Positions 1-32,000 of a stretch of DNA of 32,000 bases are shown piece after piece (position 1 is the stretch's first letter; each line of letters starts with the position of its first letter). The stretch lies in assembly GCF_000300075.1 (NCBI RefSeq), contig NC_018677.1, positions 30,001-62,000 on the forward strand. The letters run 5' to 3'. Origin of the DNA: Candidatus Saccharimonadota bacterium. GTDB lineage: Bacteria > Pseudomonadota > Gammaproteobacteria > Johnevansiales > Johnevansiaceae. Position numbers and translations under genes: made by a program. The notes under the pieces were generated by a model. It was not told where the DNA came from and searched no databases. It saw only the letters and a program-made list of their open reading frames with translations.

Positions 1-37
1 AATTGTGGTTAGGGGTTGTATAAAGTTTTTTTTATAG

Positions 38-155
38 GAAAAAGGGTGTGTATAATTATGGTTTTATGAGGTGTTTGTAAGAAGTAATATAAGAAAGGTA
101 AAGAGAAAAAAAGAAATGTAGTATAAAAGAAAAAAGGGTTTGTATAATAATGGTT
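38..155 (+). repeat. Imperfect direct repeat pair of about 26 nt (38-63 and 129-155)
   Basis: The two copies are gaaaaagggtgtgtataattatggtt and gaaaaaagggtttgtataataatggtt, spaced 91 bp apart. Confidence 0.6.
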
Positions 156-599
156 AAATGCTGTGTTAGGTAAAAGAGAGATATTTGTTTTTGGTAGAGT
201 GATGAGAAGGTTAGTTAAAATGTATTAGATGTTGTTTTGTTTAACATTTGTGGTAAAAAATAGATGAGTAGTTAAAAGATAACTGATAGATGTGGTATAT
301 ATATGAATTGTTTTAAAGTTAAGTACATAAAATTATTAATTGTTAATGGTATTAGGGGTATGCGTTTTGTTGAATATGTCTTATTAACTTAATTAAAGGT
401 TAAATTTTAGCTTAGATGTTTTATTTGTCTATTATTTAGCGATAACAGGCATTATTGAGTTATTTTCGGTATAGGTAAAGTAAATGTATAATCATATTAA
501 AAATATAAATTAGATGTTATGATTAATAGTTGATTAAATAGAATATAGATAGAGTGGTGTTATTGGTATTAATGGAATAATAGTAAGATTAGTATACAG

Positions 600-708
600 G
601 TTATATGTAAAAATGGAAGAGTCGGATAGGTTGTCAAAAAAAATAAGAGAAGTTATATAAAAATGGAAGAGTCGGATAAGTTGTCAAGAATATAAGAGAT
701 ATTATATG
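600..708 (+). repeat. Tandem duplication with a unit of about 50 bp, roughly 2 copies
   Basis: The sequence taaaaatggaagagtcggata[g/a]gttgtcaa occurs at 608-637 and 658-687 (29/30 identical). The downstream halves have diverged and carry a 1-nt indel. Confidence 0.8.
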
Positions 709-822
709 AAAAAAAGTAAAGATATTCGGCAATATAAGTTTAAAAAAACAAGTAAAGTCGTACAGTTTTACTAATAGAATAAAATTAAAATCATAAAATA
801 AACAAAAAAAAAAGAAATAAAT

Positions 823-2394
823 ATGAATAACAGTGAATATAAAAGATATAACTTCATAGTAGAGAATTATGTAAAAAAAATACTTAAAGCAAAAGTGTAT
901 GAACTTGCTAAAGAAACACCTTTAGCTTGTACGCCGTTACTTTCTACTTATTTAAAAAACAACATATTTATAAAGCGTGAAGATTTACAACTAAACTTTT
1001 CGTTTAAAGTTAGAGGCGCTTATAACTGTATGAGAAACTTATTAAAAAATAAGAATATTCAATGCGTAATTACAGCTTCAGCTGGAAACCATGCACAAGG
1101 AGTTGCTTTAGCGGCAAAAAAATTGGGTATAAAATCAATTATTATTATGCCAAAAGTTACACCTGAAATTAAGGTTTTATCTGTACAATCGATTGGATGT
1201 GAAGTTTTAATAAAAGGTGATAATTTTAATTCGTCTTTAAAGTATGCGTTAAGTTTAGTAAAGAATTATGGTTATACTTACATACCTCCTTTTGATGACA
1301 CAGAAGTTATTGCAGGTCAAGGCACTTTAGCGATGGAAGTATTAAAACAATATAAAAATAAAATACATGCAATATTTGTTCCAGTTGGCGGAGGAGGATT
1401 AATTGCAGGTATTACAGCGTATCTAAAATATTTACGTCCTAAAATAAAGATCGTTGGTGTAGAGCCAGAAGATTCTGCTTGTTTAAAAGAAGCAATTAAA
1501 TATGGTTATCCAATAACATTAAATACTATAGACATGTTTGCAGAAGGAGTAGCAGTATCACGGGTTGGAAAGAAGCCTTTAAAGTTAATAAAAAATATAT
1601 TAGACGATCTAATAACTGTTAATATAGATGAAATGTGTAGTGCAGTAAAAGATATATTTGAAAATACAAGAGCATTGGCAGAAGTTTCAGGAGCTTTATC
1701 TTTAGCTGGTTTAAAAAAATATATAATAAAACAAAACATTACAAATAAAAATTTAATTTGTGTTAATACTGGAGCAAATATTAATTTTGACAAATTACAA
1801 TATATAGCACATAGAACAGCACTAGGGGAAAACAAAGAATTAATATTAGCTATAAAATTACCTGAATCTATAGGGAGTTTAAAAAGTCTATGTAATATAA
1901 TAGGAAACAAGAAAAGGTTTACTGAATTAAATTATCGGTTTTTAAATAAAAAAAAAGCAAATATATTGATAGGTTTAAAAATAATTCCAGGGAATGAAGA
2001 TAAAAAATTAGTAATTAATAATATACGTAAGGCTAAGTTTTTAGTTAAAGATATGAGTTCAAATGAATTAATAAAAATACATATTCGTCATTTAATTGGA
2101 GGACAAGTAAATAAATTTACAAATAAAAAAAATTATAAAGAAGAATTATATTGTTTTGAATTTCCAGAAAAAACAGGAGCATTAATAAAATTTTTAAATA
2201 GTTTACCAGAAATATTTAATATTTCTTTATTTCATTATAGAAATTATGGCTATGCCTATGGTCGTGTTTTAATAGCTATTCAATTATATAAAAATAAAAA
2301 ACAACAAGTAGAAAGTAATTTAGATAAGTTAGGTTATAGATATTGGAACGAAAGCAAAAATGTTGCTTATAAAATGTTTTTAAATCAAAATTGA
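823..2394 (+). CDS. ilvA: Biosynthetic threonine dehydratase (threonine ammonia-lyase) with a C-terminal regulatory domain
   Basis: The protein is 523 aa. It has the PLP-lysine motif FSFKVRGAYN and the glycine loop PVGGGGLIAG. A C-terminal extension of about 190 aa matches the double ACT-like regulatory region of IlvA. The stop codon is TGA. Confidence 0.95.
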   Translation: MNNSEYKRYNFIVENYVKKILKAKVYELAKETPLACTPLLSTYLKNNIFIKREDLQLNFSFKVRGAYNCMRNLLKNKNIQCVITASAGNHAQGVALAAKKLGIKSIIIMPKVTPEIKVLSVQSIGCEVLIKGDNFNSSLKYALSLVKNYGYTYIPPFDDTEVIAGQGTLAMEVLKQYKNKIHAIFVPVGGGGLIAGITAYLKYLRPKIKIVGVEPEDSACLKEAIKYGYPITLNTIDMFAEGVAVSRVGKKPLKLIKNILDDLITVNIDEMCSAVKDIFENTRALAEVSGALSLAGLKKYIIKQNITNKNLICVNTGANINFDKLQYIAHRTALGENKELILAIKLPESIGSLKSLCNIIGNKKRFTELNYRFLNKKKANILIGLKIIPGNEDKKLVINNIRKAKFLVKDMSSNELIKIHIRHLIGGQVNKFTNKKNYKEELYCFEFPEKTGALIKFLNSLPEIFNISLFHYRNYGYAYGRVLIAIQLYKNKKQQVESNLDKLGYRYWNESKNVAYKMFLNQN

Positions 2395-2409
2395 AAATAA
2401 TTATGTAAT

Positions 2410-2414
2410 GGAGA
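2410..2414 (+). promoter_or_regulatory. Shine-Dalgarno-like GGAGA, 6 nt upstream of the TTG start of fpr
   Basis: The sequence ggaga lies at 2410-2414 and the TTG start at 2421. Confidence 0.55.
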
Positions 2415-2420
2415 ATTTGA

Positions 2421-3194
2421 TTGAAAAGTTTTTGTCTTGAAAAAATTTTAAACGTTGTTCATTGGAATCATAATTTATTTAGTTTTTTTATTACCAAACA
2501 TAAAACTTTTCGTTTTAATAATGGGCAATTTATACTTATTGGTTTAAATAATAATAAATACTATAAATTAATAATAAGAGCTTATTCTATCGTTACCCCC
2601 AATTATGCAAATCATATTGAATTTCTTTCAATAACAATAAAAAACGGAAAATTTACATCATTATTAAAAAATATAAAAATTGGTGATTATATACTAATAA
2701 GTACAAAATCTTCTGGAAGTTTAATACTTGATAATATTCGAATTGGTAAAATTTTATATCTTTTATCTACTGGAACTGGTTTAGCACCATTTATAAGTTT
2801 AATACAAGATCCACTGATATATAACAGGTTTGACAAAATTATTTTAATACATGGAGTAAGTTATATAAAAAATATAGCATATAAAACTTTTGTTAATAAA
2901 AACATTTTTTATAGGTATATTGTTAACATAAAAACAAAGTTAATTTATTATCCAACAATTTCTAGGGAAATTTATATAAATAAAGGTAGAATAACAGAGC
3001 TTCTTATTAAAGGAACCTTATTGAAATGTTTAAAGTTACCTTTTCTTAATTTTCATTATGATAAGTTAATGTTATGCGGTAATAGAGCTATGTTACAAGA
3101 ACTTATATATTATTTAACTAAGTTATCTTTTAGATTTTCAATAATAAATAATCCAAATGATTTTGTATTTGAATATTCTTTTATAAGCAACTAA
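2421..3194 (+). CDS. fpr: Ferredoxin/flavodoxin-NADP+ reductase
   Basis: The protein is 257 aa. It has the FAD-binding RAYSIV motif, the NADP-binding LLSTGTGLAPF motif and MLCGNRAM near the C-terminus. It is collinear with E. coli Fpr. The start codon is TTG. Confidence 0.9.
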   Translation: MKSFCLEKILNVVHWNHNLFSFFITKHKTFRFNNGQFILIGLNNNKYYKLIIRAYSIVTPNYANHIEFLSITIKNGKFTSLLKNIKIGDYILISTKSSGSLILDNIRIGKILYLLSTGTGLAPFISLIQDPLIYNRFDKIILIHGVSYIKNIAYKTFVNKNIFYRYIVNIKTKLIYYPTISREIYINKGRITELLIKGTLLKCLKLPFLNFHYDKLMLCGNRAMLQELIYYLTKLSFRFSIINNPNDFVFEYSFISN

Positions 3195-5340
<2,146 letters not shown>

Positions 5341-5344
5341 TTAA

Positions 5345-5602
<258 letters not shown>

Positions 5603-5630
5603 AAGGAATCACTTACATTAAGTTAAAACG

Positions 5631-5648
5631 TTAAGGTTAAGGTTAAGG
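5631..5648 (+). repeat. Hexanucleotide repeat (TTAAGG)x3 immediately upstream of the atpF GTG start
   Basis: The sequence ttaaggttaaggttaagg was read directly. Each unit carries an SD-like AAGG. Confidence 0.85.
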
Positions 5649-5656
5649 TAATCTTT

Positions 5657-6127
5657 GTGAATATTAATTTAACTATTTTATGTGAAGTTATAAACTTTTC
5701 TATTTTAATATGGTGTTGTAAAAATTTCATTTGGCCGCCAATAAAAAAAAATATATTAGATAGAGAAAAAACAATAAATAATGCTTTAACAGCTGCTAAT
5801 ATAGCAAAAAAAGAATTATATAAAGCAAAAAAAGAATCAAAATATATTTTATGTATAGCAAAGAAAGAAGCAGATTTAATATTAGAAAAAGCACGATTAC
5901 ATCACAATGTAATACTTGAAAAAGCAAGAAATATATCGAAAAAAGAAAGTGATATTGAATTAAAAAACAGGAAAAAGTTATTTGAAGAGCATTTGGCAAT
6001 TAGAAAAAAAGATTTGCATGAAAAACTAATAAAAGTATCTTTAATCGGTTTAGAAAAATTATTAGAAAGTTCAATAAATATAAACATAAATAAAGAAATT
6101 TTTAAAAAGTTAGTAAACAAAATATGA
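5657..6127 (+). CDS. atpF: F0F1 ATP synthase subunit b
   Basis: The protein is 156 aa with a GTG start. The N-terminus MNINLTIL...FIWPPI aligns with E. coli MNLNATIL...YVWPPL. A long charged helix follows. Confidence 0.9.
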   Translation: MNINLTILCEVINFSILIWCCKNFIWPPIKKNILDREKTINNALTAANIAKKELYKAKKESKYILCIAKKEADLILEKARLHHNVILEKARNISKKESDIELKNRKKLFEEHLAIRKKDLHEKLIKVSLIGLEKLLESSINININKEIFKKLVNKI

Positions 6128-6645
6128 AAATATCTGTAAAATTAAAAAAAAACAACCCATATTTAAAAGCATTATGGACAGTATCAGTTTTATCAAAAGA
6201 TTTAGATAAATGGAAAAATAGAATAAAAATTGTTGAGTTTATTTTAAATTATTATAAAAAAAATAATGTATGTAAAAGTTTTTGGGTTAAGACACAATTA
6301 AAAAGGGTTTTAGATACAGACAGTTTAAAAGTAATAAAGTTATTATTAATAGCTAATCAAAATAAGAAAACAAAATATATTTTATTGTATTATGAAAATA
6401 AGATACTACAACAATATAAGATTATGAGTATAGAAATACTTAGTGCTTTTATAATGAACAAAAAGCAAAAACAACAAATAACAAACAAAATAAGTTTAAA
6501 ATTAAAAAAAAAAATTTTTATAATAAAGATCAAAATAAAAAAAAAGATAATGGGTGGCTTTATTATAAAGCTTAAAAATATAAATATAGATTGTTCAATA
6601 ATCGGTAGATTAAATAAATTAAAAAATAATATATTAGGGTATTAG
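6124..6645 (+). CDS. atpH: F0F1 ATP synthase subunit delta
   Basis: The protein is 173 aa and overlaps atpF through ATGA. The N-terminal PYLKAL...W and the C-terminal GGFIIKLKNINIDCSIIGRLNKL align with E. coli AtpH ([23 protein letters not shown]). It is highly diverged and Lys-rich. Confidence 0.85.
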   Translation: MKISVKLKKNNPYLKALWTVSVLSKDLDKWKNRIKIVEFILNYYKKNNVCKSFWVKTQLKRVLDTDSLKVIKLLLIANQNKKTKYILLYYENKILQQYKIMSIEILSAFIMNKKQKQQITNKISLKLKKKIFIIKIKIKKKIMGGFIIKLKNINIDCSIIGRLNKLKNNILGY

Positions 6646-6656
6646 GATGATGAATT

Positions 6657-8189
6657 ATGAAACAATTAAAGTTTTCTGAACTTAGTAATATAATCAAAAA
6701 AGAACTTACAAATATTAAGTTTCAATTAGATTTGAAAAATGAAGGAATCATTATAAATGTATTTGATGGAATCGTTCGAATGTATGGATTATATGATGCT
6801 ATGTATGGTGAAATAATAGAATTTGTGGACAATATTTTTGGTTTAGTCTTTAATATTGAACGCACGAATGTAGGTATAGTGATCTTAGGCGATTATAAGA
6901 ATCTTTCAGAAGGAATGAAAGGTAAATGCACAGGTAACTTATTAAAAGTACCTGTCGGTTTAGAACTAATTGGTAGAGTTGTAGACACATTAGGAATTGC
7001 TATAGATGGTAAAGGAACAATAAAAACAAAAAAAAAAGATTTAATTGAAAAAATAGCGCCAGGTGTTATCTGCAGAAAAACTGTAAATCAACCATTAAAC
7101 ACAGGTATAAAAGCAATAGATTCAATGATTCCAATAGGTTTAGGGCAAAGGGAATTAATTATTGGTGATAGAAATGTTGGAAAAACATCGCTATGCTTGG
7201 ATGTAATTTTAAATCAAAAAAATAAAGATATAACTTGTATATATGTTGCTATCGGGCAAAAAAAATCTAATGTTGTAAAAATTGTAAATGTTTTTGAGAA
7301 ATATGGAGCTATGAATTATACAATAGTAGTTGTTGCTTCGGCATCAGACCCGGCTATAATGCAATATTTAGCCCCTTATACAGGTTGTACGATGGGTGAA
7401 TATTTTCGTGATAGAGGAAAAAATGCAGTAATTGTATATGATGATTTAACAAAACAAGCTTGGGCATATAGACAAATATCATTGTTGTTAAAAAGACCAC
7501 CAGGAAGAGAAGCTTATCCGGGGGATATTTTTTATATCCATTCAAAATTATTAGAAAGAGCTTGCAGGGTTAATAAGAAGTTTGTTGGTAATCAGACAAA
7601 AGGAAGAAGAAATACAACGGGGTCATTAACAGCTTTACCAATTATAGAAACAAAAGGTGGAGATGTATCAGAGTTTATTCCTACAAATGTAATTTCTATA
7701 ACCGATGGGCAAATTTTTTTAGAAACAAATTTATTTAATAATGGCATAAGACCTGCAATAAATGTAGGTTTATCAGTGTCAAGAGTAGGTGGTTCTGCAC
7801 AGACTAAAATTATAAAAAAATTAGGATCAGGTATTCGTTTATCTTTGGCTAAATATAGAGAGTTAGAATCTTTTGCACAATTTAGTTCAGAATTGGATAA
7901 AATAACTAAAAAACAAATTATTAAAGGAAGAAATATAACAGAATTAATGAAACAAAAGCAACTAAACAAAAGGAGCGTAGCTGAATTAGCAATTTTATTG
8001 TATGCTGCAAATAAAGATTATTTAAACGATGTAGATATAAAAAAAATAGCTTTTTTTGAAAACGAACTAATAAAATATTTAAATATAAAATATAAAAAAA
8101 TAAGAAATTTGATAAATAAAAAAGGTAAAGAAGAGTATATAGAGCAATTAAAACAAATATTAGAAAAATTTAAAGAAAATCATAGGTAA
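6657..8189 (+). CDS. atpA: F0F1 ATP synthase subunit alpha
   Basis: The protein is 510 aa. It has the Walker A motif GDRNVGKTS and strong full-length conservation, for example [27 protein letters not shown]. Confidence 0.97.
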
Positions 8190-8193
8190 AAAA

Positions 8194-10454
<2,261 letters not shown>

Positions 10455-12180: not shown

Positions 12181-12420
12181 CCCCAAACTACTATAACTTT
12201 AATCAATAACTATTTTAACAACCTCTTTTAACACTTCTCTACTTTACAACTACTTTATTATTACCTACAACAACAAACAATTGTCAAATAACATAATAGT
12301 ATAAAAAACAGAAATAGACCTCTAATAATAAAGCCATCCTCTAAAAACAATATAACACATAACAACAACAACTATGCTTAAATACAATAACAAAAATCAT
12401 CTAACAGATAAAAACTCTAA

Positions 12421-12500
12421 CAACAAACCTCACCTCTAAAATCTTAAAAGCAACATCAAACAACATACCTCACCTCTAAAATCTTAAAAGCAACATCAAA
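12421..12500 (+). repeat. 40-bp tandem duplication, 2 copies with 1 mismatch
   Basis: The sequence caaca[a/t]acctcacctctaaaatcttaaaagcaacatcaaa occurs at 12421-12460 and 12461-12500. Confidence 0.9.
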
Positions 12501-12654
12501 TAACTAACAGATAAAAAAAACCATCTTAAAACTTTAAAGCAACTTCTTTTTAAAAACCATCAAACAACAAAAAATAATAACTATCCTCTAAAAAATAATC
12601 AAAAACCTCTACATAACAACAAATAATATATAAAAAACAACATATTACTTCTAA

Positions 12655-12752
12655 CCAACAACCAACAACCAACAACCAACTACCAACTACCAACTACCTA
12701 CTACCTACTACCTACAACCTCTAACCTAACAACTCTAACCTCTAAACTCTAA
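12655..12752 (+). repeat. Heptanucleotide array with stepwise variant blocks
   Basis: Read in 7-nt register, the array is (CCAACAA)3 (CCAACTA)3 (CCTACTA)2 CCTACAA CCTCTAA CCTAACA ACTCTAA CCTCTAA ACTCTAA. Confidence 0.9.
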
Positions 12753-13336
12753 TAACTAAAACTCTAAACAAATAACAATTTTAACATCTAATAAATAAAC
12801 CTACAACCTAAAAATATAACCATTTTATTTTAACATCTAAACTCTTACCTCTTTAACATCTTTAAATAAACATCTACAAAACAACAAATAACCTCTAACG
12901 TTTCTAAAAAACCAATCTCCAATTAACATCAAACAACCTCTTACACAGAAATAAGTAACATCTAACACATAACAACATAAAAAGAAAAAGATCTAGCAAA
13001 TTTATTATAAAAACATAACTAACCCTCTAACAAAAAAAAACATAAATAAATAAACAACAAAACTAATAATCAATAACAACAAACCTCTAACACCTAATTA
13101 TTTAACAATTAACAATATTTAAGCATAAGTTGTATTACATAACAAAAACACAAAACAATATTTAATAAAATTATAACAAATAAGAATTGAAATAATTAAT
13201 AATACAACAAACTTATAAAAAAAGAAGAAGGTAAAACAGCTAACAAATAGTTATAAAAAATAACAACAAACGACTAACAAAAAAAAAGAAATAACAAAGA
13301 ATAAACAAAAAGCAAAAAATAAAGAGGTAGTAACAA

Positions 13337-13448
13337 ACCTAAAACCTAAAACCTAAAACCTCAAACCTAACAACTCAAACCTCAAACCTCAAACCTCAAA
13401 CCTCAAACCTCAAACCTCAAACCTAACAACTCAAACCTAAAACCTAAA
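13337..13448 (+). repeat. Heptanucleotide array of 16 units with a nested, near-symmetric block structure
   Basis: The array reads (ACCTAAA)3 ACCTCAA [ACCTAAC AACTCAA] (ACCTCAA)6 [ACCTAAC AACTCAA] (ACCTAAA)2. Confidence 0.9.
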
Positions 13449-13754
13449 AAACAAACATCTAACATCAAACATCAAACAAATAAACTCTAAATAACAAAAA
13501 AAGAACATAAAAACTAAGAGTAAACACTAACAAAAAAAATATAACGCATAAAAAGAAAACAAAAGCTAAAACAACAGACATCTAATATAAAACATATAAA
13601 GCTAAAGAGAAACAAACGGTTGTATAAAAAGAAAATAAACATAACACATAACAGAAAAAAGTAGTAACGGCGCGGGAAAGTTTGTAAAAAAAAAAACGAA
13701 AAAAAAACACAATAATAAAAATAAGAAAGCAGTTTAAATAGGTATTTTGCTGTA

Positions 13755-13759
13755 GAGGT
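13755..13759 (+). promoter_or_regulatory. Shine-Dalgarno GAGGT, 5 nt upstream of the leuD ATG
   Basis: The sequence gaggt lies at 13755-13759 and the ATG at 13765. Confidence 0.6.
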
Positions 13760-13764
13760 TTAAA

Positions 13765-18732: not shown

Positions 18733-19998
18733 ATGTTAGATATTAAATTAATTTGCAACAATTTTAATAATGTTGTTAAAAAATTAGCCAGCCGTGGTTA
18801 TGAATTAGATATTAAAAAAATTAAAACGTTGCTAGAAATACGCAATAAGTTTAAAACTAATACTGAAACTTTACAAAATAAACGCAATATTATATCTAAA
18901 ACTATAGGAAACAACAAGAATTATATATTAAAAGTACAAAAGTTATTTGTAAAAGTAAAAAAAATAAATCATAAACTTCATAAAAATATTTTATGTTTAG
19001 AAGTAACCAACAAAAAAATTTATAATATTTTATTTAAAATACCAAACTTACCACATAATAGTGTACCAATTAAAACCAATATAGAGATAATACGTTGGGG
19101 AGTTCCTAAATCATTTAACTTTTCCATACGTGATCATATTAAGATAGGCTTATTAAATGGTGATATTGATTTTGAATTAGCAACTAAAATAACTGGTTCT
19201 AATTTTACTTTAATACGTGGAAATTTAGCTAAATTACATCGTGCTTTAATACAATTTATGTTAGATAAGCAAATTAATGATCATGGTTATGAAGAAATGT
19301 ATGTGCCATATATAATTAATAGAACTTCTTTAGTAGGTACAGGTCAATTACCTCAATTTAATAAAAATGTTTTTGAACTTGAAGGAGAAAATGAATATTT
19401 TCTTATTCCTACAGCTGAAGTCCCTTTAGTTAATAGTGTCAGTGGTAAACTTTTCAATGTTAATGATTTACCAATTAAATTAACAGCACATTCTCCTTGT
19501 TTTAGAAACGAACCTGTATCTTATGGAACTGATTCTCGTGGTATGTTGAGACAGCTACAGTTTGATAAAATAGAATTAGTTCAAATAGTACATCCTGAAA
19601 AATCTTATGTTGTATTAGAAGATATGACTAACCATGCTGAAGAAATTTTAAAAGCATTAAATTTGCCTTATAGAGTTATAAGTTTATGTAAGGAAGATAT
19701 TAGTTTTTGTGCATCTAAAACTTATGATATAGAAGTTTGGATTCCTAGTCTTGAAACTTATTTAGAGATTTCATCGATATCTAATTGTGAGGATTTTCAA
19801 GCAAGAAGAATTAAAACTAGATTTCGTATTAATAAAGACAAAGCAAAGCCTAAATTTGTACATACACTTAATGGCTCTGGACTAGCTGTTGGTCGTTGTT
19901 TGTTAGCCGTATTGGAATATTATCAAAACGAAGATGGCTCTATTACAGTTCCAGATAGTTTGCGCTCTTATATGTGTGGTATTAACCGTCTTTATTAG
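18733..19998 (+). CDS. serS: Seryl-tRNA synthetase
   Basis: The protein is 421 aa. It has an N-terminal coiled-coil arm and class II motifs (FRNE, RQLQFDKIELV, TLNGSGLAVGR). Confidence 0.96.
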   Translation: MLDIKLICNNFNNVVKKLASRGYELDIKKIKTLLEIRNKFKTNTETLQNKRNIISKTIGNNKNYILKVQKLFVKVKKINHKLHKNILCLEVTNKKIYNILFKIPNLPHNSVPIKTNIEIIRWGVPKSFNFSIRDHIKIGLLNGDIDFELATKITGSNFTLIRGNLAKLHRALIQFMLDKQINDHGYEEMYVPYIINRTSLVGTGQLPQFNKNVFELEGENEYFLIPTAEVPLVNSVSGKLFNVNDLPIKLTAHSPCFRNEPVSYGTDSRGMLRQLQFDKIELVQIVHPEKSYVVLEDMTNHAEEILKALNLPYRVISLCKEDISFCASKTYDIEVWIPSLETYLEISSISNCEDFQARRIKTRFRINKDKAKPKFVHTLNGSGLAVGRCLLAVLEYYQNEDGSITVPDSLRSYMCGINRLY

Positions 19999-20576
19999 TT
20001 CTTTTTTTTTTAGTTTTTGCTGGTTTTTTCTTTTAACCCTTACTACTACATATACCCCTAACATAAAAACACAATTTACCACTTTTTGCTAATAACTACA
20101 CTACTTTTACAAATACATAACTATTTAACAACACCTACTGTTATATTTTTATATTCTTAATAACTTTTAACTATAATTAAACAATAACTAATAGTTAACA
20201 ATATAAGCTATTAATTAACATCACAAAAGCATTAAACCTAAGTGCTAAACACAACTACATAACAAACTTTTTAACACAATATTCCATTTAATAATACAAC
20301 TACAATTCATAATTTTTACAAAACACAAACAATTAAACTGCTAACACATAAACACATAAGCATTTATACTATCAGCTATAAAAAATAAAACAAAACTACA
20401 TAACTTTTAAGAACAAACAAACAAATGATTTTTAAGCTAACAGCTTTTAATCAAATAACAACTTTTTACATAACTAACCCTCTAACAAAAAAAACATAAA
20501 ATATAAGTCATTACAATATTTTGTATATACTACTAAAACATAACAACACAACAAGAACAGCAAAAAAAACAAAAAA
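19999..20576. other. 578-bp non-coding spacer between serS and tRNA-Arg. It begins with a T-rich 40 nt and is then G-poor and A/C/T-rich.
   Basis: The spacer has no ORF. It shares a 33-34-nt module with the argF-leuD spacer (20468-20500 versus 13013-13046). Confidence 0.8.
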
Positions 20577-20650
20577 GCGCCTGTAACTCAATTGGACAGA
20601 GTATTTAACTACGAATTAAAGGGTTGGAGGTTCGATCCCTCTCAGGCGTA
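20577..20650 (+). tRNA. tRNA-Arg, anticodon ACG
   Basis: I folded the cloverleaf by hand. The acceptor stem is gcgcctg/caggcgt (one G-U pair). The D stem is actc/gagt. The anticodon stem is tttaa/ttaaa with loop ctACGaa. The variable loop is 5 nt. The T arm is ggagg-ttcgatc-cctct. The discriminator is A. It is 74 nt long and CCA is not encoded. Confidence 0.92.
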
Positions 20651-20659
20651 TTATAGTTT

Positions 20660-22240
20660 CTAAAAAAAATGAAGTTGTAAAAATAGGTTTGTTATATTGA
20701 GTTTTTGTACAAGAAAATTAAATAAATATCTTTTATAATGATTTGGTAAACTTTGTTTGGTTGTTTGCCCAAAAACAACAATAATTATAGGATTTATATT
20801 TATTTGTTTTGCTAATAATAATTTAAAATTATGCTTGTTTTTAAAGAGGGGTTTTTTTTTTATTGCTAAATTTAGCAAGTTTGTTAAAAATTTAATAGAC
20901 CAAAATTTTGTCTTTAAAAACACAAATAAGTCAAGAGAATTAAAAATGGAAACGAAATTATAAAGATATAAAGCAGAAATAAAATGCATGGTTAAAATTT
21001 TTGTAAATTGATATAACTTAGAATACAACAACTGATGTATAAACATAATTTGTTTGTTATTGATTGCATCACATTTATTAAAAATTAAAAATAAATGTTT
21101 TCCTGAAAATAAAATCTGTTTTAAAAGAAAGATATCTTGTTCGAAAAAGCCCCTAGTTGCATCGATAACATAAAAAACAATATCATAGTGATGTATAAAC
21201 TTACTAAATAGTTTAAGTTGTTTTATAGTGTTAGTTATTCCTTTTGTATCTGTTAACAGAAATAAATGATTTTTATAGAGGATTTTAATCGTTATATTTT
21301 CTCGTGTAGTACCAGGTTGATGATTAATAATTAAACGCGTTTCTTTTACTAAGCTATTTATTAGTGTTGATTTCCCAACATTGGTTTTACCAATAATACA
21401 TATATTTGTAAGATTACTAGTTTTATGATTGTTGTTTTGTTTATGCTTATTTTGGTTAGTTGTTATTTGTTTAAAGGCTTTGAGTTTAATAGGATTTTTA
21501 TTAATAGGTTGTTTTATGGTTGTTATTTGTTTAAAACTTTTGATAATATTTTTATGTTTGCTGTTTATTAATAGATTGTTATTGGTTATTTTATGATGTG
21601 TGTTTTTGATTTTGAGAGTTTTGTTTTGTGTATGCTGGTTAGTTTTTATTATGTTAGTTGTTATTTTAAGATGTGTGTTGTGAAGTAAAAAGGGTTTAAG
21701 TGTTGTGTTTTGTGTTTGATTTATATAATTGGTTTTATTATCATTAGACAAAATACCAGAAATTCTTGTTAACAAATGTTTTATATTAATTTTGTGTAAA
21801 GCAGAAATAAAAAGTGTTTGATCGTCATAATTTAAATAATTAAAAGAACACGGTATCATATAATCAATTTTGTTAATAATAAATATTATTGTTTTATTTT
21901 TTTTTTGTAAAAACTTAATGATTTTTTTGTAAAAAGAATCTAAGTGACTGTAAGCTGTTATTAAAAACAAAATGATATGTGCTTCTTGAATAGCTATTTT
22001 TGTTTGTTTATTTATACAATAGGTTAGATTGTTTGTTTTATAAGAAAAGAAATCAGTAGAAAGTGCAGCTGTATCTATTAAAGTGCAGTTTTTATTATTT
22101 AGTTGTAATATTCCATACTTTCTATCTCTTGTAAAAAAAGGAATATTGTTTGTTATAGAATCTTTATTTTTTGTTAAGCAATTAAACAATGTTGATTTTC
22201 CTACATTGGTTTTACCAATTATTGTAATAATTTGACTCAT
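20660..22240 (-). CDS. der: Ribosome-associated double-GTPase Der (EngA) with an expanded inter-domain linker
   Basis: The protein is 526 aa. GD1 has GKTNVGKS / DTAA / NKID. GD2 has GKTNVGKS / DTKG / NKCD, starting at about aa 281. A KH-like C-terminus follows. The linker between the two domains is about 114 aa of low complexity. Confidence 0.9.
   Translation of the reverse strand: MSQIITIIGKTNVGKSTLFNCLTKNKDSITNNIPFFTRDRKYGILQLNNKNCTLIDTAALSTDFFSYKTNNLTYCINKQTKIAIQEAHIILFLITAYSHLDSFYKKIIKFLQKKNKTIIFIINKIDYMIPCSFNYLNYDDQTLFISALHKINIKHLLTRISGILSNDNKTNYINQTQNTTLKPFLLHNTHLKITTNIIKTNQHTQNKTLKIKNTHHKITNNNLLINSKHKNIIKSFKQITTIKQPINKNPIKLKAFKQITTNQNKHKQNNNHKTSNLTNICIIGKTNVGKSTLINSLVKETRLIINHQPGTTRENITIKILYKNHLFLLTDTKGITNTIKQLKLFSKFIHHYDIVFYVIDATRGFFEQDIFLLKQILFSGKHLFLIFNKCDAINNKQIMFIHQLLYSKLYQFTKILTMHFISALYLYNFVSIFNSLDLFVFLKTKFWSIKFLTNLLNLAIKKKPLFKNKHNFKLLLAKQININPIIIVVFGQTTKQSLPNHYKRYLFNFLVQKLNITNLFLQLHFF
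21404..21745 (-). repeat. In-frame low-complexity linker expansion of der, made of spacer-like A/C/T-only sequence on the sense strand, including a 60-bp tandem duplication
   Basis: The plus strand of 21421-21720 contains only 5 C in 300 nt, so the sense strand has 5 G. The sequence tgttatttgtttaaa recurs at 21461 and 21521, exactly 20 codons apart, and FKQITT recurs at aa 236 and 256. Confidence 0.85.
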
Positions 22241-23516
22241 AATAAAATATTGATTTCAGAGTGTTTATTAACGGTTTTAAAGCTAATAAGTTTTGTGTTT
22301 TTTTATATAAATCTTTTATAGACACTTTATTCTTTTGAACTTCATTCTCTCCATAAATTAAAAGAATATTTATGTTATTTTTCTTTGCTTTATATATATT
22401 TTTTTTAAAAGATGTATCACAAAAAGTGTTTTGTATAATCAAATTAGGTAATTCATTACGAAGAAACTCTAATAGTTTAATTGATTTAATTATAATAGTT
22501 TTTTTATTTGAAATTGTAATAAAACAAACATGACTTTTAATTTTCATATTAGTTGGAAGTTTATTTGTGGTTTTTAATAACAATATTGTTCTTTCTAAGC
22601 CTATAGCACAACCTATAGCTGGAGTTTTTTTACAATTAAAAAATTTTAATAAATAATCATACCTACCACCAGCACATATAGTATTTTGACTACCTAAAGC
22701 TTTCGTTTTCCATTCAAAAACAGTGCGTGAATAATAATCTAAACCTCTTACTAAGTTTTTATTTATTTTGTATTTGATGTTTGTGTAATTTAAAATCTTT
22801 TTTAAATATTCAAAATGTTTAATAGATTTTTGATCTATATAATCTAATATGTTTGGAGTATGTGTTACTATATATGTTATATTCTTTACTTTAGTATCTA
22901 ATAATCTTAAAGGATTTTTATACATCTTATATATTAGATTGCTATCTAAATAATTTTTAAACTTTTTTAAATACTTGAACAATATATTTGTGTATAATCG
23001 TCTTGATGTTTTTGAACCCAAAGAATTTATTTCTAAATGTAAATATTTTTGCACCCCTAATGCCTTGAATATTCTATTTGTCATTATTATTATTTCTGAG
23101 TCCATCTCTGGACCATGTTTATTAAAACTTTCTACTCCAAATTGATGAAATTGCCTAAACCGACCATTTTGAGGATTTTCATATCTAAACATTGGACCAA
23201 CATACCACACTTTTTGTGTTTGATTTGTCATATGATTTTCTAGTATAGATCTAATTATAGAAGTAGTGTTTTCAGGTCTTAATGTTAATTGTTTTTGCTT
23301 TTTATCCTTAAACGTATACATTTCTTTTTTTATTATATCTGTAGTTTGTCCTAAAGAGATGGTAAATAAATTAGTTTGTTCAATAATTGGTGTTCTAATC
23401 TCTAAATATAAATGCTGATATAAAATCATTTTAATTTTATTTTCTATATATTGCCAAATAACAGATTTTTTAGGTAGAATATCATTCATACCTTTAAGAG
23501 ATTTTATTGTTATCAT
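22212..23516 (-). CDS. hisS: Histidyl-tRNA synthetase
   Basis: The protein is 434 aa. It has the N-terminal KGMNDILP, plus FRYENPQNGRFRQFHQFG and GGRYD class II HisRS motifs. Its 3' end overlaps the der start by 29 nt. Confidence 0.95.
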   Translation of the reverse strand: MITIKSLKGMNDILPKKSVIWQYIENKIKMILYQHLYLEIRTPIIEQTNLFTISLGQTTDIIKKEMYTFKDKKQKQLTLRPENTTSIIRSILENHMTNQTQKVWYVGPMFRYENPQNGRFRQFHQFGVESFNKHGPEMDSEIIIMTNRIFKALGVQKYLHLEINSLGSKTSRRLYTNILFKYLKKFKNYLDSNLIYKMYKNPLRLLDTKVKNITYIVTHTPNILDYIDQKSIKHFEYLKKILNYTNIKYKINKNLVRGLDYYSRTVFEWKTKALGSQNTICAGGRYDYLLKFFNCKKTPAIGCAIGLERTILLLKTTNKLPTNMKIKSHVCFITISNKKTIIIKSIKLLEFLRNELPNLIIQNTFCDTSFKKNIYKAKKNNINILLIYGENEVQKNKVSIKDLYKKTQNLLALKPLINTLKSIFYYESNYYNNW

Positions 23517-25451
23517 AAACTATATCTGTTATATTGTTTTGTTTAAACAAAGATTATATTTACTTAAATACTAAATAAGCAATATTAAAACTACATTGCT
23601 AACTAGATTTAAATAATAGAAAATACAATATGTAAAAAAACTCTAATAATAAAACAATTTTTTTAACACACACAAATAATCTACTCAACGCCATTTTACA
23701 ATCTTAATTTAATTCTTTCCTTTCTTATACAAACATAATTCTTTTTAACAAATAACAATTACCACTTCTACATACAATACAATTTTCTTTTCTTTTAACC
23801 AACACCATTAAACCACAACATTTTTATTTAATAACTTTTTAACAACAAAACTTCTACTAATACTACTGTTTAATAAGCCATGATTTTTATTTTCTTTTCT
23901 TTCTTTTTTTATCATTTATCACAAACAACAAATTCTTAACCAAATACATACTTGAGATTGCTAACACATAACATAATTATCATACAAAAAACATCCTTCT
24001 GCTAACATTTGCTAACTTATAACACAAAACACAAACAACAACATGTTACCATCCATTTATTTTTTTTATATAACATATTTTTTTCATTCTACACTTAACC
24101 TTTAAACATAGTTTAGAAAAAATATAACTACACAAGTCTTATATATCAAACTAAACTAATATAATATAACATAACATAACATATAATAAATGAAATACAC
24201 AAACCAAAAATTTAACAAAAATCACTAATACACAATCAAAAAAAAAAACTATATATAATAACAACATACAGCTAAAATATATACAAAACAAAAAAAACAA
24301 GAAAGAATATACACGGTTTAGTAAAAAGCAATAACGATATAAAAATTTAAAGAATAAACAAAAACACTGAACAATAACACAATTTTAAAGATATTTTTTT
24401 TAAGTACAACACAATTTTTAATAAATAATATAAAACTATTAGTTTTACACAACCACTTACAAACTAGTTATAAATTAGTTTTTCAACTTACATCAATACC
24501 AATACAACCATCTCTTTAGCAATACTACATAGTGTTGTATTTATTATTTACATTATTTATAATTAGCATAACAAGTTACGATATTAAGCATTAAACAAAC
24601 AACATCAAAAATAACAACAATCCTAAATTATTAAATATACTTCAAAATTCACAACTCTTTTAAGTACAAAAAATTCTATACATTAATCATAAAACATAAG
24701 ACATAAGAACTATTTAACAACCATAACCACAATTCACAAAACATAAAACATAAGACATAAGAACTATTTAACAACCATAACCACAATTCACAGCAAAACA
24801 AATATTTTTATAATACATATAACTCAAATATGTTAACGAAATTAAGAAAGAACAGATAACACCTAACAACTAAAAAAAGACAAAACAGCAAATAACAAAT
24901 CTAAACGGACATAAAGCATAACATATAACCCAACTTAGCAAAATAAAATACAATAGAGAATAAAAATACAGCAATTAAATAAATTCAGCGTTAATCAAAA
25001 CATAAAAGAAGAACACATACAGCAACTAAATAAAAAGATTAAACTAAAACTCTAACATAAAGCAAACACAAACGCACATACAGATAACACAAATACAAAA
25101 CACATAACAACTAATACAATGAAAATAACAGCTAAAAGTTAACACAAAAACTAAAAAACATAAAATATAAGAACGAAGACATATAAAATAAAAAAGCACA
25201 AAACAAGGAGTAAACAAGCTTATATAACAAAAATATATCCTCTAACACATACCTACAAAACTGCCAACTAACATCAAACATAAACACATAGATCTTAAAA
25301 TAGAATACATATAACTCAAAACAAAAAAAAAACAATAACAAACAGAAAAAAAGTTAAAGCGAAAATATATAAAATCAAAAAAAACAAAAATCAGAAAACT
25401 AAAGAAAACGAATAACACAGAACAAAAACAAAAATATAAAGGACGAAAATA
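23517..25451. other. 1.94-kb non-coding spacer between divergent hisS and lon. The plus strand is G-poor and A/C/T-rich, and becomes A-rich and T-poor from about 24840.
   Basis: There is no plus-strand ORF. The minus-strand track ORF at 25132-25341 is an artefact. The spacer contains repeated gctaaca motifs, an (ATAAC)n tract near 24166 and a perfect 51-bp duplication. Confidence 0.8.
24688..24792 (+). repeat. Perfect 51-bp direct duplication (24688-24738 and 24742-24792) separated by 3 nt
   Basis: The sequence cataaaacataagacataagaactatttaacaaccataaccacaattcaca was read twice with no mismatch. Confidence 0.92.
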
Positions 25452-29657: not shown

Positions 29658-31147
29658 TTTACTTTTTTTTATAAAAAGACTTTACACATTACATTCCAAT
29701 AAATAAAACAAAACAAAACGTAAATAACTATATTTTCATAATTTTTATAAAACAAATCATAACAAAGTTCATAGTTTTTATAAAACAAATCCCAACAAAA
29801 TCCATAGCTTTTTCGTTAGAAAAAAAATTACAAAACAAAGAAATAAATTTTAAATAGAAGAAAAACTTTATATAAACAATTCAACACTTTAAATCTCTTA
29901 ACTAATGATTTTTATCTTATTCAATATAAACATATAAAGATTAAGCTTTATATATAATAGATATATTAACAAACATATTGTTAACCAATATTTAAACTTT
30001 TATTTTTAAACAAAACATCAATTATATATTATTAGTTTAATATATTTTTTTTTGAATTTGATTTGGATTACATAAAGATTTTAACTTGAATAATATCTAC
30101 TAAACTTAAAACTTACTAAACAACAAGTTTTTTATAGACACAACTATTCAAACACTCCATATCTGTTCTATCTTTTCTATTTTTCACATCTAATTTATTT
30201 TTACACAGGAAAATAATAGGCATTTATACTTGTGTACATGTGTTTTTTTTTATCGGTATCGTTAATACGTAATATATGTTTTTAGATATACGTTTAAAAT
30301 AAGTATTTTATATTTTCTTCAAATAACTAATACTAAATATTTTGTTTTTATACAATTAATGTTTTTTTACAAACATATTAATACCTTTTTGTTCAATTTA
30401 TCATTACAAATTCTATTAAATAACAACAAAACCTTATTTTACTTGTATACCGTATGACATATATATTTTTCAAACTATACAATACAAAATACAACTCTTA
30501 TAGTTAGTTAAGTATTAAACAAACAAGTTTAAGCATTTATAATTTTAACAACAAAATTAACTTAACCAATAAATTTAAAAGAAACAACTACTATAAACAA
30601 ACACATTAATCTACTATTTAAACATTACATCCACTACTAACAATTTAACCCTTAACCCTTTTCTACATCTACATTCATTAAACCTACAGCATATTTTACA
30701 TAGTATATACAACCTTCTATATATTAGTAAACTTTACAAGTCTATACAAAAAAGAATAGTTACTATACAGCATACAACTTTAAGCAATAAACAACATACA
30801 GCAGAACCCAATAAATCCATTAACCATACTAATAAAAAAACTGTAATACAAAAGCTAAACAAAAATATCATCTAAAACCATAATAACAAACAAAAAAAAA
30901 TACAACACATAACATAGAAAAAGTAGAAAAAAAAAACAACAAAATAGCATATAGACAAAAAAAAAGAACAGTAAACAGCAAAGAAAAAGAGAAAAATTAT
31001 ACAATACAGAAAAAGATGGTTATATAGTAAAGAAAAAACCATAAAAACACAGAAAGCTAACCATCAAAACTAAACAAAAGACTACGTAGATAAATAGAAA
31101 TATATATAAAAAGTATAAAAAAAATAAGAATATAAGTAAAATTAGAT
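29658..31147. other. 1.49-kb non-coding spacer between ilvD and the miaA pseudogene. It includes an ordinary AT-rich island without skew (about 29900-30480), followed by a G-poor A/C/T part and an A-rich leader.
   Basis: There are no ORFs in the track. Composition changes are visible by eye. Confidence 0.75.
29742..29807 (+). repeat. 33-bp tandem duplication, 2 copies with about 4 mismatches
   Basis: The two copies are tttttataaaacaaatcataacaaagttcatag and tttttataaaacaaatcccaacaaaatccatag. Confidence 0.85.
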
Positions 31148-31949
31148 ATGGGGACCACAGCATCAGGAAAAAAAGTTAGCTATAACTTTAAAAGAATATA
31201 AAATTGTGAGTTAATTAGTGTAGATTCAGCTATGGTTAATAGAAAGATGGATATCGGAACAGCAAAACAAAAATATAGATATCATGAATTAATATATATA
31301 AAAATAATAATGAAAAATATTTAGATTTGGATTTTCGTAAAGAAGCAATAAAAACAATTAGTAAGTTAGGAAAGATTCATATTTTAGTTTGTGGTACAAT
31401 GTTTAATTTAAAAACTTTATTAGAAGGAATAGCAACAATAACTTTTTACAATATTAAATTAAGCAATAAGTATTGTTTATTATTTAATAATAAATTATTT
31501 CATAAAACTGTATTAAAATTATATAATAAAGACATTTATCGAATAAAACGATTATTAGAAGTATATTTAAATACTGATTAATTAATATTGGAAAAACAAT
31601 AATAAAAATTTAAATGAAATGTAATAAAAATTATTATTAAACACAATAACAAGGAAAACTTATATAAAACCGTGTTAATACGTTTAAATATTATTTTTGA
31701 AAAAGCTTTCATCACACAAGTATAAATGTTAACGTTTATGAAAAATATGTATTTAGAATTACCTGAAAATCGAAGTATAGGTTATCGGAAAATTGGTGAC
31801 TTTGTTGATGAAAAATATAATTATTTTATTTTAAAAGATAAGATTTAATCAGCTAATAGAAACTTAGCAAAAAAAAAATTATGGTTACAAAAATATAAAG
31901 ATGCTTTTTTGTTAGATGCTTATAAACATAAAAATAGAAATAGAGATTA
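31148..31949 (+). pseudogene. miaA: tRNA dimethylallyltransferase pseudogene. It is full-length but has several in-frame stops and at least one frameshift.
   Basis: My hand translation is collinear with E. coli MiaA along the whole length. [39 protein letters not shown] matches GPTASGKT...[21 protein letters not shown]. After a frame change, [33 protein letters not shown] matches DFRRDAL...[32 protein letters not shown] follows. Then GYRKIGDFV...KI*SANRNLAKKKLWLQKY matches GYRQ...ATRQLAKRQITWLRGW. Stops lie at 31199, 31579 and 31846, among others. Confidence 0.88.
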
Positions 31950-32000
31950 GGTTGTATAATTAGTTGAAATAAATATTACAGAAGAATGGAAAAAAAAATA

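Follow-up and report, generated by a model that had tools for sequence, protein, structure and literature searches.

The analysed window is a stretch of 32,000 nt from contig NC_018677.1 (assembly GCF_000300075.1, positions 30,001 to 62,000 of the forward strand), and its minus strand carries der (engA), the gene for the ribosome-biogenesis GTPase Der. Its product shares 100% identity with WP_014894961, a protein of Candidatus Portiera aleyrodidarum from Bemisia tabaci, and comprises two GTPase domains (GD1 and GD2) followed by a C-terminal KH-like domain. The subject of this analysis is the linker between GD1 and GD2, which is unusually long, is encoded almost without G on the sense strand and probably grew in frame from a short native linker. 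The analysis shows how this linker is built, how it is distributed phylogenetically, what its composition is, that its frame is maintained, how fast it accumulates substitutions and that its length is polymorphic. Coordinates are collected in Table 1.

According to the profile analysis, Der matches the TIGR03594 model end to end (residues 4-525 against model positions 2-431/432) with a score of 289.2 bits. The curated equivalog cutoff of 306.7 is missed, a shortfall that fits AT-biased divergence together with the insert; orthology is supported by the hisS-der synteny present in all Portiera examined. Two stretches of the protein match PF01926 (MMR_HSR1, E=1.4e-42), both with the P-loop GKTNVGKS, and the KH-like domain was recognized by PF14714 with 34.8 bits against a cutoff of 27.3.

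The AlphaFold2 model, built from a 91-sequence alignment, has a predicted template modelling score (pTM) of 0.70, and both GTPase domains and the KH-like domain have a predicted local distance difference test (pLDDT) value of about 90. The top Foldseek matches of this model are YphC/EngA/Der structures, namely, 9bsl_W (target-normalised TM-score 0.76), 5dn8, 6xrs, and 3j8g, and the solved structures matched include ribosome-bound forms. The G3 motif is DTKG in GD2. In GD1 it is DTAA in all Portiera, including the lineages with stable genomes, whereas other bacteria have DTGG or DTAG; in the window, this motif is located at positions 22066-22074 (aa 56-59 of Der). GD1 of Portiera Der may have altered or lost GTPase chemistry.

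The der open reading frame (ORF) is continuous in nine entries of the B. tabaci complex (MEAM1, MED, Asia II 3, and SRA-derived assemblies) and in a related Portiera locus from ENA metagenomes (L001; ERZ27294174 and ERZ28624604). The first-pass annotation had named a split or frameshifted der as a competing possibility; no frameshift, internal stop or domain loss was seen, and the gene is intact. Der forms of 509 aa reflect a differing start-codon annotation. An entry of 475 aa (P0124, WP_253695140) owes its shorter length to a frameshift far from the linker, at the homopolymer A9C4 (window 20846-20858, der codons ~461-465). This site lies in the part of der encoding the KH-like domain and represents either a sequencing error or a genuine slippage-prone site. 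A comparative study from 2026 counts der among the genes on which purifying selection is stronger in B. tabaci Portiera, with omega dropping from 0.174 to 0.062 (PMC13637331). An Rfam scan of positions 19500-24000 detected tRNA-Arg only and no RNA element in the linker.

The Enlarged Linker and Its Distribution

A linker of about 114 aa (aa 166-279) had been proposed initially, against about 35 aa in Escherichia coli. The great length and the E. coli value were borne out (in the E. coli structure 3j8g, GD2 begins near residue 203), and the boundaries are now placed at aa 164-280, giving 117 aa. Linker size was measured in a 91-protein Der alignment from the equivalent of L156 to the equivalent of G284, the P-loop glycine of GD2. 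The anchors are 127 aa apart in Der of the window, 119 aa apart in L001 and 26 to 62 aa apart in the remaining 89 proteins. In the AlphaFold2 model, pLDDT is below 50 at aa 176-229 and 235-272, with confident domains on either side and a weak helix predicted at aa 228-238. The earlier idea that the insert is tolerated where the linker is flexible agrees with this placement in a segment predicted to be disordered.

As for other Portiera, relatives were taken from protein clusters and the contigs encoding them; a scan of genome contigs with the Der protein gave pattern matches but no tblastn-confirmed relative. The B. tabaci linker is ~100 aa longer than those of the 89 other Der proteins, among them Portiera from four whitefly lineages with stable genomes (Table 1). 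In Portiera of Singhiella simplex, the linker exceeds the other short Portiera forms by only 7-9 aa. The long linker is restricted to the B. tabaci complex (nine sequences, several independent assemblies) and its sister lineage L001. With the linker set aside, B. tabaci Der is closest to L001 (79% identity), whose locus is syntenic, with kilobase-long spacers. Neither the free-living relatives nor the stable-genome Portiera carry an equally long linker, an outcome that upholds the first-pass annotation; the long form is therefore derived and belongs to the Bemisia-type clade only.

The linker DNA of B. tabaci Portiera and that of L001 show no alignment beyond composition (local z=0.4, global z=-0.5), a result that fits a shared origin as well as independent origins. 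The linkers of Pealius mori, Trialeurodes vaporariorum, and S. simplex Portiera were aligned onto the long linkers with all z <1, and the ancestral core was not located. These short linkers are already of the N/K/H/T/I type, with 1-4 G in 48-75 nt, and the T. vaporariorum-type linker contains 23% C.

In the short-linker lineages, mutL and mutS adjoin the hisS-der locus; neither the window nor L001 has mutL at this place. For B. tabaci-type Portiera, dnaQ, mutL, ssb, and other genes have been described as lost (Sloan & Moran 2013, PMC3673631; Santos-Garcia et al. 2020, PMC7821994). Positions 29658-32000 of the window, the spacer downstream of ilvD, occupy the place of mutL and a small ORF in the stable lineages (L003 2401-4065). 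Its mixed composition fits a decayed mutL remnant among G-free tracts at 29679-29806 and 30304-30739.

Table 1. Features of the der locus in the window and linker lengths in Portiera lineages
Feature	Position in the window, or source	Strand	Basis or remark
der (engA), ribosome-biogenesis GTPase Der, 526 aa, intact ORF	20660-22240	minus	ORF call, TIGR03594, Pfam, AlphaFold2 and structure match
GD1, aa 1-163; G1 GKTNVGKS, G3 DTAA, G4 NKID	21752-22240	minus	Pfam 5-124, pLDDT mostly >85, alignment
Expanded GD1-GD2 linker, aa 164-280, 117 aa	21401-21751	minus	Composition, alignment, frame analyses
Predicted disordered linker core, aa 176-272	21425-21715	minus	AlphaFold2 pLDDT
Direct repeat copy 1 (17 nt exact, 25 nt at 88%), encodes second FKQITT	21459-21483	minus	
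Direct repeat copy 2, encodes first FKQITT	21519-21543	minus	
AAACTC (Lys-Leu) unit; +12 nt (+KLKL) in Portiera of B. tabaci Asia II 3	21482-21487	minus	Protein and DNA alignments, Tandem Repeats Finder
GD2, ~aa 281-445; G1 GKTNVGKS, G3 DTKG, G4 NKCD	20906-21400	minus	Pfam, alignment, AlphaFold2, 3j8g
C-terminal KH-like domain, ~aa 446-526	20663-20905	minus	PF14714 at 451-524, pLDDT ~77-97
hisS, 29-nt overlap with der start	22212-23516	minus	Pair kept in each Portiera lineage analysed
Flanking spacer, serS to tRNA-Arg, G-depleted on plus	19999-20576	plus	A265 C107 G22 T184; same polarity in syntenic L001 spacer
Flanking spacer, hisS to lon (divergent genes), G-depleted on plus throughout	23517-25451	plus	A987 C325 G100 T523
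Linker length, Portiera of B. tabaci	window		117 aa
Linker length, Portiera from ENA metagenomes	L001/L002		109 aa
Linker length, Portiera of P. mori	LR744089 (L003)		18 aa
Linker length, Portiera of T. vaporariorum type	L004		16 aa
Linker length, Portiera of S. simplex	CACTJB01 (L005)		25 aa
Linker length, two other short forms and Aleurodicus-type form	P0004, P0005, P0008		similarly short

Composition, Reading Frame and Sequence Drift

The sense strand of the linker consists of 55% A, 20.5% C, 2.3% G, and 22% T. The corresponding values are 50-54%, 17-20%, 4-6%, and 21-32% for the G-poor strand of the spacers and 41%, 11%, 15%, and 33% for coding sense strands. Positions 21404-21745 contain 7 G per 342 nt, and the poorest 300-nt window (21449-21748) contains 5 G, exactly the count given at first reading. 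Codons without G number 109/117 in the linker and 318/409 in the rest of der (P=8e-5); in the slice of aa 169-280, they number 106/112, against 62% in other genes (P=7e-16). Among the 22 genes of the window, depletion of one base this strong over more than 150 nt inside a coding sequence (CDS) is found in the linker only.

At the protein level, N, K, T, I, and L together account for 74% of the linker. The ten-residue alphabet described initially (N, K, T, Q, H, I, L, P, F, and S) covers most of the linker, but one A, one Y, and one D occur besides. The linker contains 20 K+R, one D+E, and 8 H residues. Its net charge is about +20 in B. tabaci Portiera and about +28 in L001, with zero or one acidic residue, whereas the linkers of free-living Der are acidic. 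The scarcity of D and E follows automatically from the use of G-free codons.

The likeness to the spacers on the minus strand, claimed in the first-pass annotation, holds even at synonymous sites. Linker codons for N, H, F, Y, and I have an NNC:NNT ratio of 14:25, compared with 186:1458 for those of other genes (P=7e-5). C occupies 18.8% of third positions in the linker and 9.5% in the remainder of der (P=0.008), and G 2.6% and 6.6%, respectively. In a third-order Markov classifier, only the linker blocks scored higher under the spacer model than under the coding one, the margin being +11 to +20 per 90 nt. The amino acid composition of the linker correlates with that of the translated G-poor spacer strand at r=0.90 and with that of the window proteome at r=0.63.

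As for shared sequence, the comparisons of the linker with spacers covered the spacers of this window. In these 7.5 kb, 7- to 10-mers of the linker recur no more often than those of its dinucleotide-matched shuffles (z 0.6-1.5), and local alignments of the linker to the window spacers score within the shuffle range. The 7-bp tandem arrays that are a hallmark of the spacers (Sloan & Moran 2013), where they reach up to 20 copies, are absent from the linker, which has trivial two-copy 7-mers only. A 3-nt periodicity is present in the linker and absent from the spacers.

Portiera of P. mori served as a control. Its genes hisS, der, and mutS, located on one chromosome strand, have more C than G at third positions (G in der is 1.4%), and genes of the other strand reverse this, as in a replication-type skew. 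Ordinary domain-coding stretches of P. mori der also pass a filter of <=3 G per 120 nt. This filter, tried inside CDS as a diagnostic of spacer-type sequence, was dropped, as many ordinary P. mori coding stretches pass it on the C-rich strand. The low ancestral G of the short linkers and of the silent sites of P. mori der means that G depletion alone is not diagnostic. The real spacer-like signal is the enrichment in A and C, together with the contrast to the rest of B. tabaci der. In B. tabaci Portiera, hisS has more G than C at third positions of its own sense strand, so that the skew is independent of gene orientation; this fits the reported loss of a clear GC-skew pattern.

The duplication first described as exact with a 60-bp period was confirmed in part. 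The motif FKQITT is present twice, 20 codons apart, and exact repetition extends to 17 nt at most, with an offset of 60, a length reached in 0/200 dinucleotide shuffles; the full 60-nt units are identical at 36/60 positions, which is the chance level for this composition. Tandem-repeat periods in the linker are 6, 9, 12, 15, and 18. The length polymorphism looked for after the first reading was found in the comparison of the window with Portiera of B. tabaci Asia II 3 (CP016327, L006): the linkers differ by a single 12-nt insertion, (AAACTC)2, which adds KLKL, and in the Asia II 3 strain Tandem Repeats Finder counted AAACTC at 3.5 copies.

The reading frame of the linker is strictly maintained. 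No stop occurs in frame, whereas composition predicts 8.5 (P=0.0005), and the other two sense frames contain 10 and 22; the L001 linker has the same open-frame behaviour. This result justifies the caution of the first-pass annotation that orientation may reflect selection on the frame.

In the same comparison with Asia II 3, substitutions number 4/351 in the linker (1.14%) and 13/6126 in CDS (0.21%), and three spacers differ by 1.7-2.9%. Values for hisS, serS, and lon are 0.08-0.24%, and the rest of der differs by 0.49%. The four linker substitutions are more than the ~0.7 expected at the CDS rate and agree with the ~6.7 of the spacer rate. All four are non-synonymous and remain within A/C/T; they are too few for a test of the ratio of non-synonymous to synonymous substitution rates. 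Thus, the linker sequence drifts almost freely, with its frame strictly and its length loosely kept.

In the spacers at 19999-20576, 23517-25451, and 12181-13764, substitutions between the MEAM1-type and Asia II 3 genomes are mostly A<->T and G<->T transversions, with very few transitions. This unusual, transversion-rich spectrum possibly reflects the lost repair and proofreading genes. The leuD-argF spacer (window 12181-13764, L006 18489-19374) contains indels of 565 nt and 132 nt between the two genomes, whose coding sequences differ by ~0.2% or less; these indels indicate that spacer length is highly dynamic.

Strand Polarity of G-Poor Tracts

The linker is G-free on the der sense strand, and both flanking spacers are G-free on the opposite strand, in the window as well as in L001. 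A bias tied to the chromosome strand (replication) cannot explain both, and the polarity of A/C/T-only tracts is not set simply by the chromosome strand. The hisS-lon spacer, which keeps its polarity in L001, differs by 1.8% from that of Asia II 3. On the other side of der, tRNA-Arg (ACG, 20577-20650, plus strand) ends 10 nt from the der stop codon (20660, minus strand), and this convergent arrangement leaves almost no room for terminators.

Along the window, spacer polarity is block-wise. Spacers to the left of ~822 (ilvA start) are C-depleted on the plus strand, and those to the right (3195 onward) are G-depleted on it. The flip is located near gyrB, mnmG, and atp genes and could be a replication landmark or an inversion breakpoint. 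In many Gammaproteobacteria, these genes are origin-proximal. In the window taken together with positions 1-10000 of the MED strain CP007563 (L008), the C-depleted left side includes the spacer upstream of gyrB (plus strand). In L001, a spacer segment between two minus-strand genes (2361-3160) has the "wrong" polarity. In S. simplex Portiera, the spacer upstream of hisS (L005 1-288) is an A/C/T-only sequence on the sense strand of hisS and der, where each 96 nt contain 1-4 G, a polarity opposite to that of the equivalent spacer in B. tabaci Portiera and L001.

Selection on the frame alone predicts the orientation of the linker, since A/G/T-only sequence on the sense strand would allow all three stops. 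The linker is thus at best weak evidence for a rule of transcription direction, as had been cautioned at first reading. It may conceivably be, with little probability, that G-free DNA in the unstable Portiera clade arises or persists specifically on the transcribed sense strand. Possible reasons include G-poor, C-rich transcripts that avoid R-loops or load Rho and, further, transcription-coupled mutation in a cell without SSB and repair; rho, ung, mutY, and rnhA were searched for in PMC5322561, and none was found. If this were true, the der linker would be a natural experiment separating the direction of transcription from that of replication, and the growth of G-free sequence would amount to a general, directional way in which bacterial genomes expand and which can also build protein sequence.

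Another feature of the window is the absence of a ~6.5-kb segment with yidC, mnmE, and mnmG, where a single copy of a ~400-nt repeat is kept at 3833-4231. In MED strain CP007563, this segment is located between two ~400-nt direct repeats (12994-13392 and 19529-19927). Its presence and absence fit the repeat-mediated structural polymorphism described by Sloan & Moran 2013 and the assembly sizes of ~351 vs ~357.5 kb.

Origin and Significance of the Linker

The linker matches what is expected of a slippage-type expansion: biased composition, a disordered inter-domain site, short repeats, length polymorphism, restriction to a lineage, and a frame that is kept while the sequence is not. It is probably a lineage-specific, in-frame, low-complexity expansion (~95-100 aa) of the native GD1-GD2 linker, formed in situ by slippage under lost proofreading and mismatch repair; we infer slippage as the generator, the causal link to the disappearance of repair genes, and functional neutrality. 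The seed would have been an ancestral Portiera linker of 16-25 aa, rich in N/K/H/T/I and encoded with hardly any G. In Bemisia-clade Portiera, proofreading and mismatch repair would have gone with dnaQ, mutL, and other genes, after which the linker would have grown in place by replication slippage and duplication of short repeats, while the same regime of relaxed fidelity inflated the intergenic spacers. Selection would have acted as a filter only, retaining an open frame and indel and repeat periods that are multiples of 3. A/C/T on the sense strand, with TAA as the sole stop, would have been the only orientation surviving in frame, and the amino acid sequence would drift near the neutral rate. 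The product would be a disordered, strongly basic tether, tolerated but not required; judging from the solved Der structures, GD1 needs only a flexible connection to GD2-KH. The initial proposal that the process building the spacers operates inside der is therefore retained in one form, the same slippage regime acting on a native seed, and abandoned in the other, spacer sequence expanded into the gene.

Several observations weigh against this explanation. Most of the ~350-nt linker has no repeat structure above chance, and the direct traces of slippage, a process that we infer, are one small recent indel and one 17-nt repeat. The richness of the linker in A and C exceeds what ancestral seeds or the silent sites of der would give, so that some added bias favouring growth of A/C-rich tracts is needed. 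In S. simplex Portiera, spacers of this type are inflated as well and dnaQ is a pseudogene, but the linker has only 25 aa; genome instability alone is thus insufficient for linker growth. In addition, a function could be hinted at by the similar lengths in two lineages (117 and 109 aa), by the near invariance of the linker across the B. tabaci complex, and by the stronger purifying selection on der in B. tabaci (PMC13637331).

An acquired function would mean that a long, lysine-rich and acid-free disordered segment was recruited as a ribosomal RNA-binding or otherwise useful extension, for example, one compensating for lost assembly factors, and that its length is selected. Besides the lengths kept in diverged lineages and the selection on der, this agrees with the basic charge of the linker, opposite to that of free-living Der, and with a single 12-nt length change in the B. 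tabaci complex against changes of 565 and 132 nt in a nearby spacer. However, sequence conservation is lacking between the linkers of B. tabaci Portiera and L001, all four substitutions are non-synonymous at a rate near that of spacers, the absence of D and E is automatic, the composition mirrors untranslated spacers, and 16-25 aa suffice in other Portiera; recruitment for a function appears unlikely. A strand-specific, transcription-linked process that purges G from the sense strand of unconstrained DNA, or builds G-free sequence there, in spacers and linker alike, would account for the opposite polarities of linker and flanking spacers in two lineages. It also agrees with the 7/7 spacers between co-directional genes (window and L008) that are G-poor on the sense strand. 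The silent sites of genes do not follow such a pattern: G exceeds C at third positions in plus-strand genes and in hisS, and the rest of der differs from the linker in both. The block-wise polarity with its flip at ~822, the C-depleted plus strand upstream of gyrB, and the L001 segment of wrong polarity speak against it as well, and the linker orientation is already predicted by frame selection. We regard this process as a rather improbable source of the linker.

Capture of a pre-formed A/C-rich piece of intergenic repeat by illegitimate or repeat-mediated recombination, open by chance, would explain a composition identical to that of the spacers, and the genome does recombine across repeats, as the 6.5-kb repeat-flanked segment present or absent between assemblies demonstrates (PMC3673631). 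Against such an event stand the k-mer sharing and best local alignments with the spacers of this window, both at shuffle level, the lack of 7-bp arrays, and the 3-nt periodicity that spacers do not have; an insert of this composition would have a stop-free frame by chance with a probability of ~5e-4. Capture is accordingly considered very improbable. Decay of der, with the insert marking a pseudogene, a split gene or an assembly artefact, could be read from the shortened P0124 entry (475 aa), the TIGR03594 score slightly under the cutoff, and the DTAA motif of GD1. But the ORF is continuous in at least eight independent assemblies and L001, the P0124 frameshift at the homopolymer is distant from the linker, three domains are modelled confidently and match solved Der structures, the flanking domains are conserved (0.49% divergence), and DTAA is common to all Portiera, including stable lineages. 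Pseudogene, split-gene and artefact readings were rejected on the open frame, the assemblies and the domain models, and there is hardly any chance that der is decaying.

In-situ expansion has parallels elsewhere. In Plasmodium falciparum and Dictyostelium, in-frame Asn/Lys-rich low-complexity inserts in AT-rich genomes are attributed to replication slippage and are tolerated rather than required. Like these, the der linker is lineage-specific, located between conserved domains or in loops, N/K-rich, predicted to be disordered, fast-evolving and length-polymorphic at short repeats. It differs in its occurrence in a bacterium with a reduced genome of 0.36 Mb, where proteins usually shrink, in being strictly G-poor and C-enriched (20% C) rather than just AT-rich, in mirroring the strand-asymmetric spacers of its own genome, and in its apparent rarity (one case among the 22 window genes).

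Previously, expanded repetitive intergenic regions were described in B. tabaci Portiera (Sloan & Moran 2013, PMC3673631; Santos-Garcia et al. 2020, PMC7821994), with repeats concentrated in intergenic regions and pseudogenes (PMC7821994). The linker occurs in the same genome and clade as these spacers and has the same one-strand composition, a similar substitution rate and the same presumed cause, loss of dnaQ, mutL, and other repair genes. Unlike the spacers, with their 7-bp tandem repeats and indels of hundreds of bp, it has periods that are multiples of 3, codon periodicity, a 12-nt polymorphism only, and no sequence shared with the spacers examined. An 11-aa loop indel is known in NusG of B. 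tabaci Portiera and is absent from T. vaporariorum and Aleurodicus Portiera (bioRxiv 10.1101/110353). Both are in-frame length changes in a variable region of an essential information-processing protein, the NusG loop being surface-exposed; the der linker is ten times larger. The Der linkers of E. coli (3j8g), Bacillus subtilis YphC (2hjg/9bsl), Thermotoga maritima (1mky), and Coxiella burnetii (5dn8) occupy the same position between GD1 and GD2. By comparison with other Der linkers, that of B. tabaci Portiera, with its anchor distance of 127 aa, is twice the longest of 89 and is basic, not acidic. In the Portiera literature searched, no description of the der linker or of one-strand G depletion of spacers was found.

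The der linker is a new example of a known phenomenon and reveals no new mechanism or kind of element. It indicates that the mutator-like regime bloating intergenic DNA also marks the inside of an essential gene, with ~100 near-neutral codons kept in frame, and it runs counter to the usual shrinkage of proteins in reduced endosymbiont genomes. Comparison of the linker with the adjacent spacers offers a measure of slippage with and without frame constraint, and the linker bears on how much tether length Der tolerates. Across Aleurolobini whiteflies, it could serve as a natural marker for dating the onset of genome instability.

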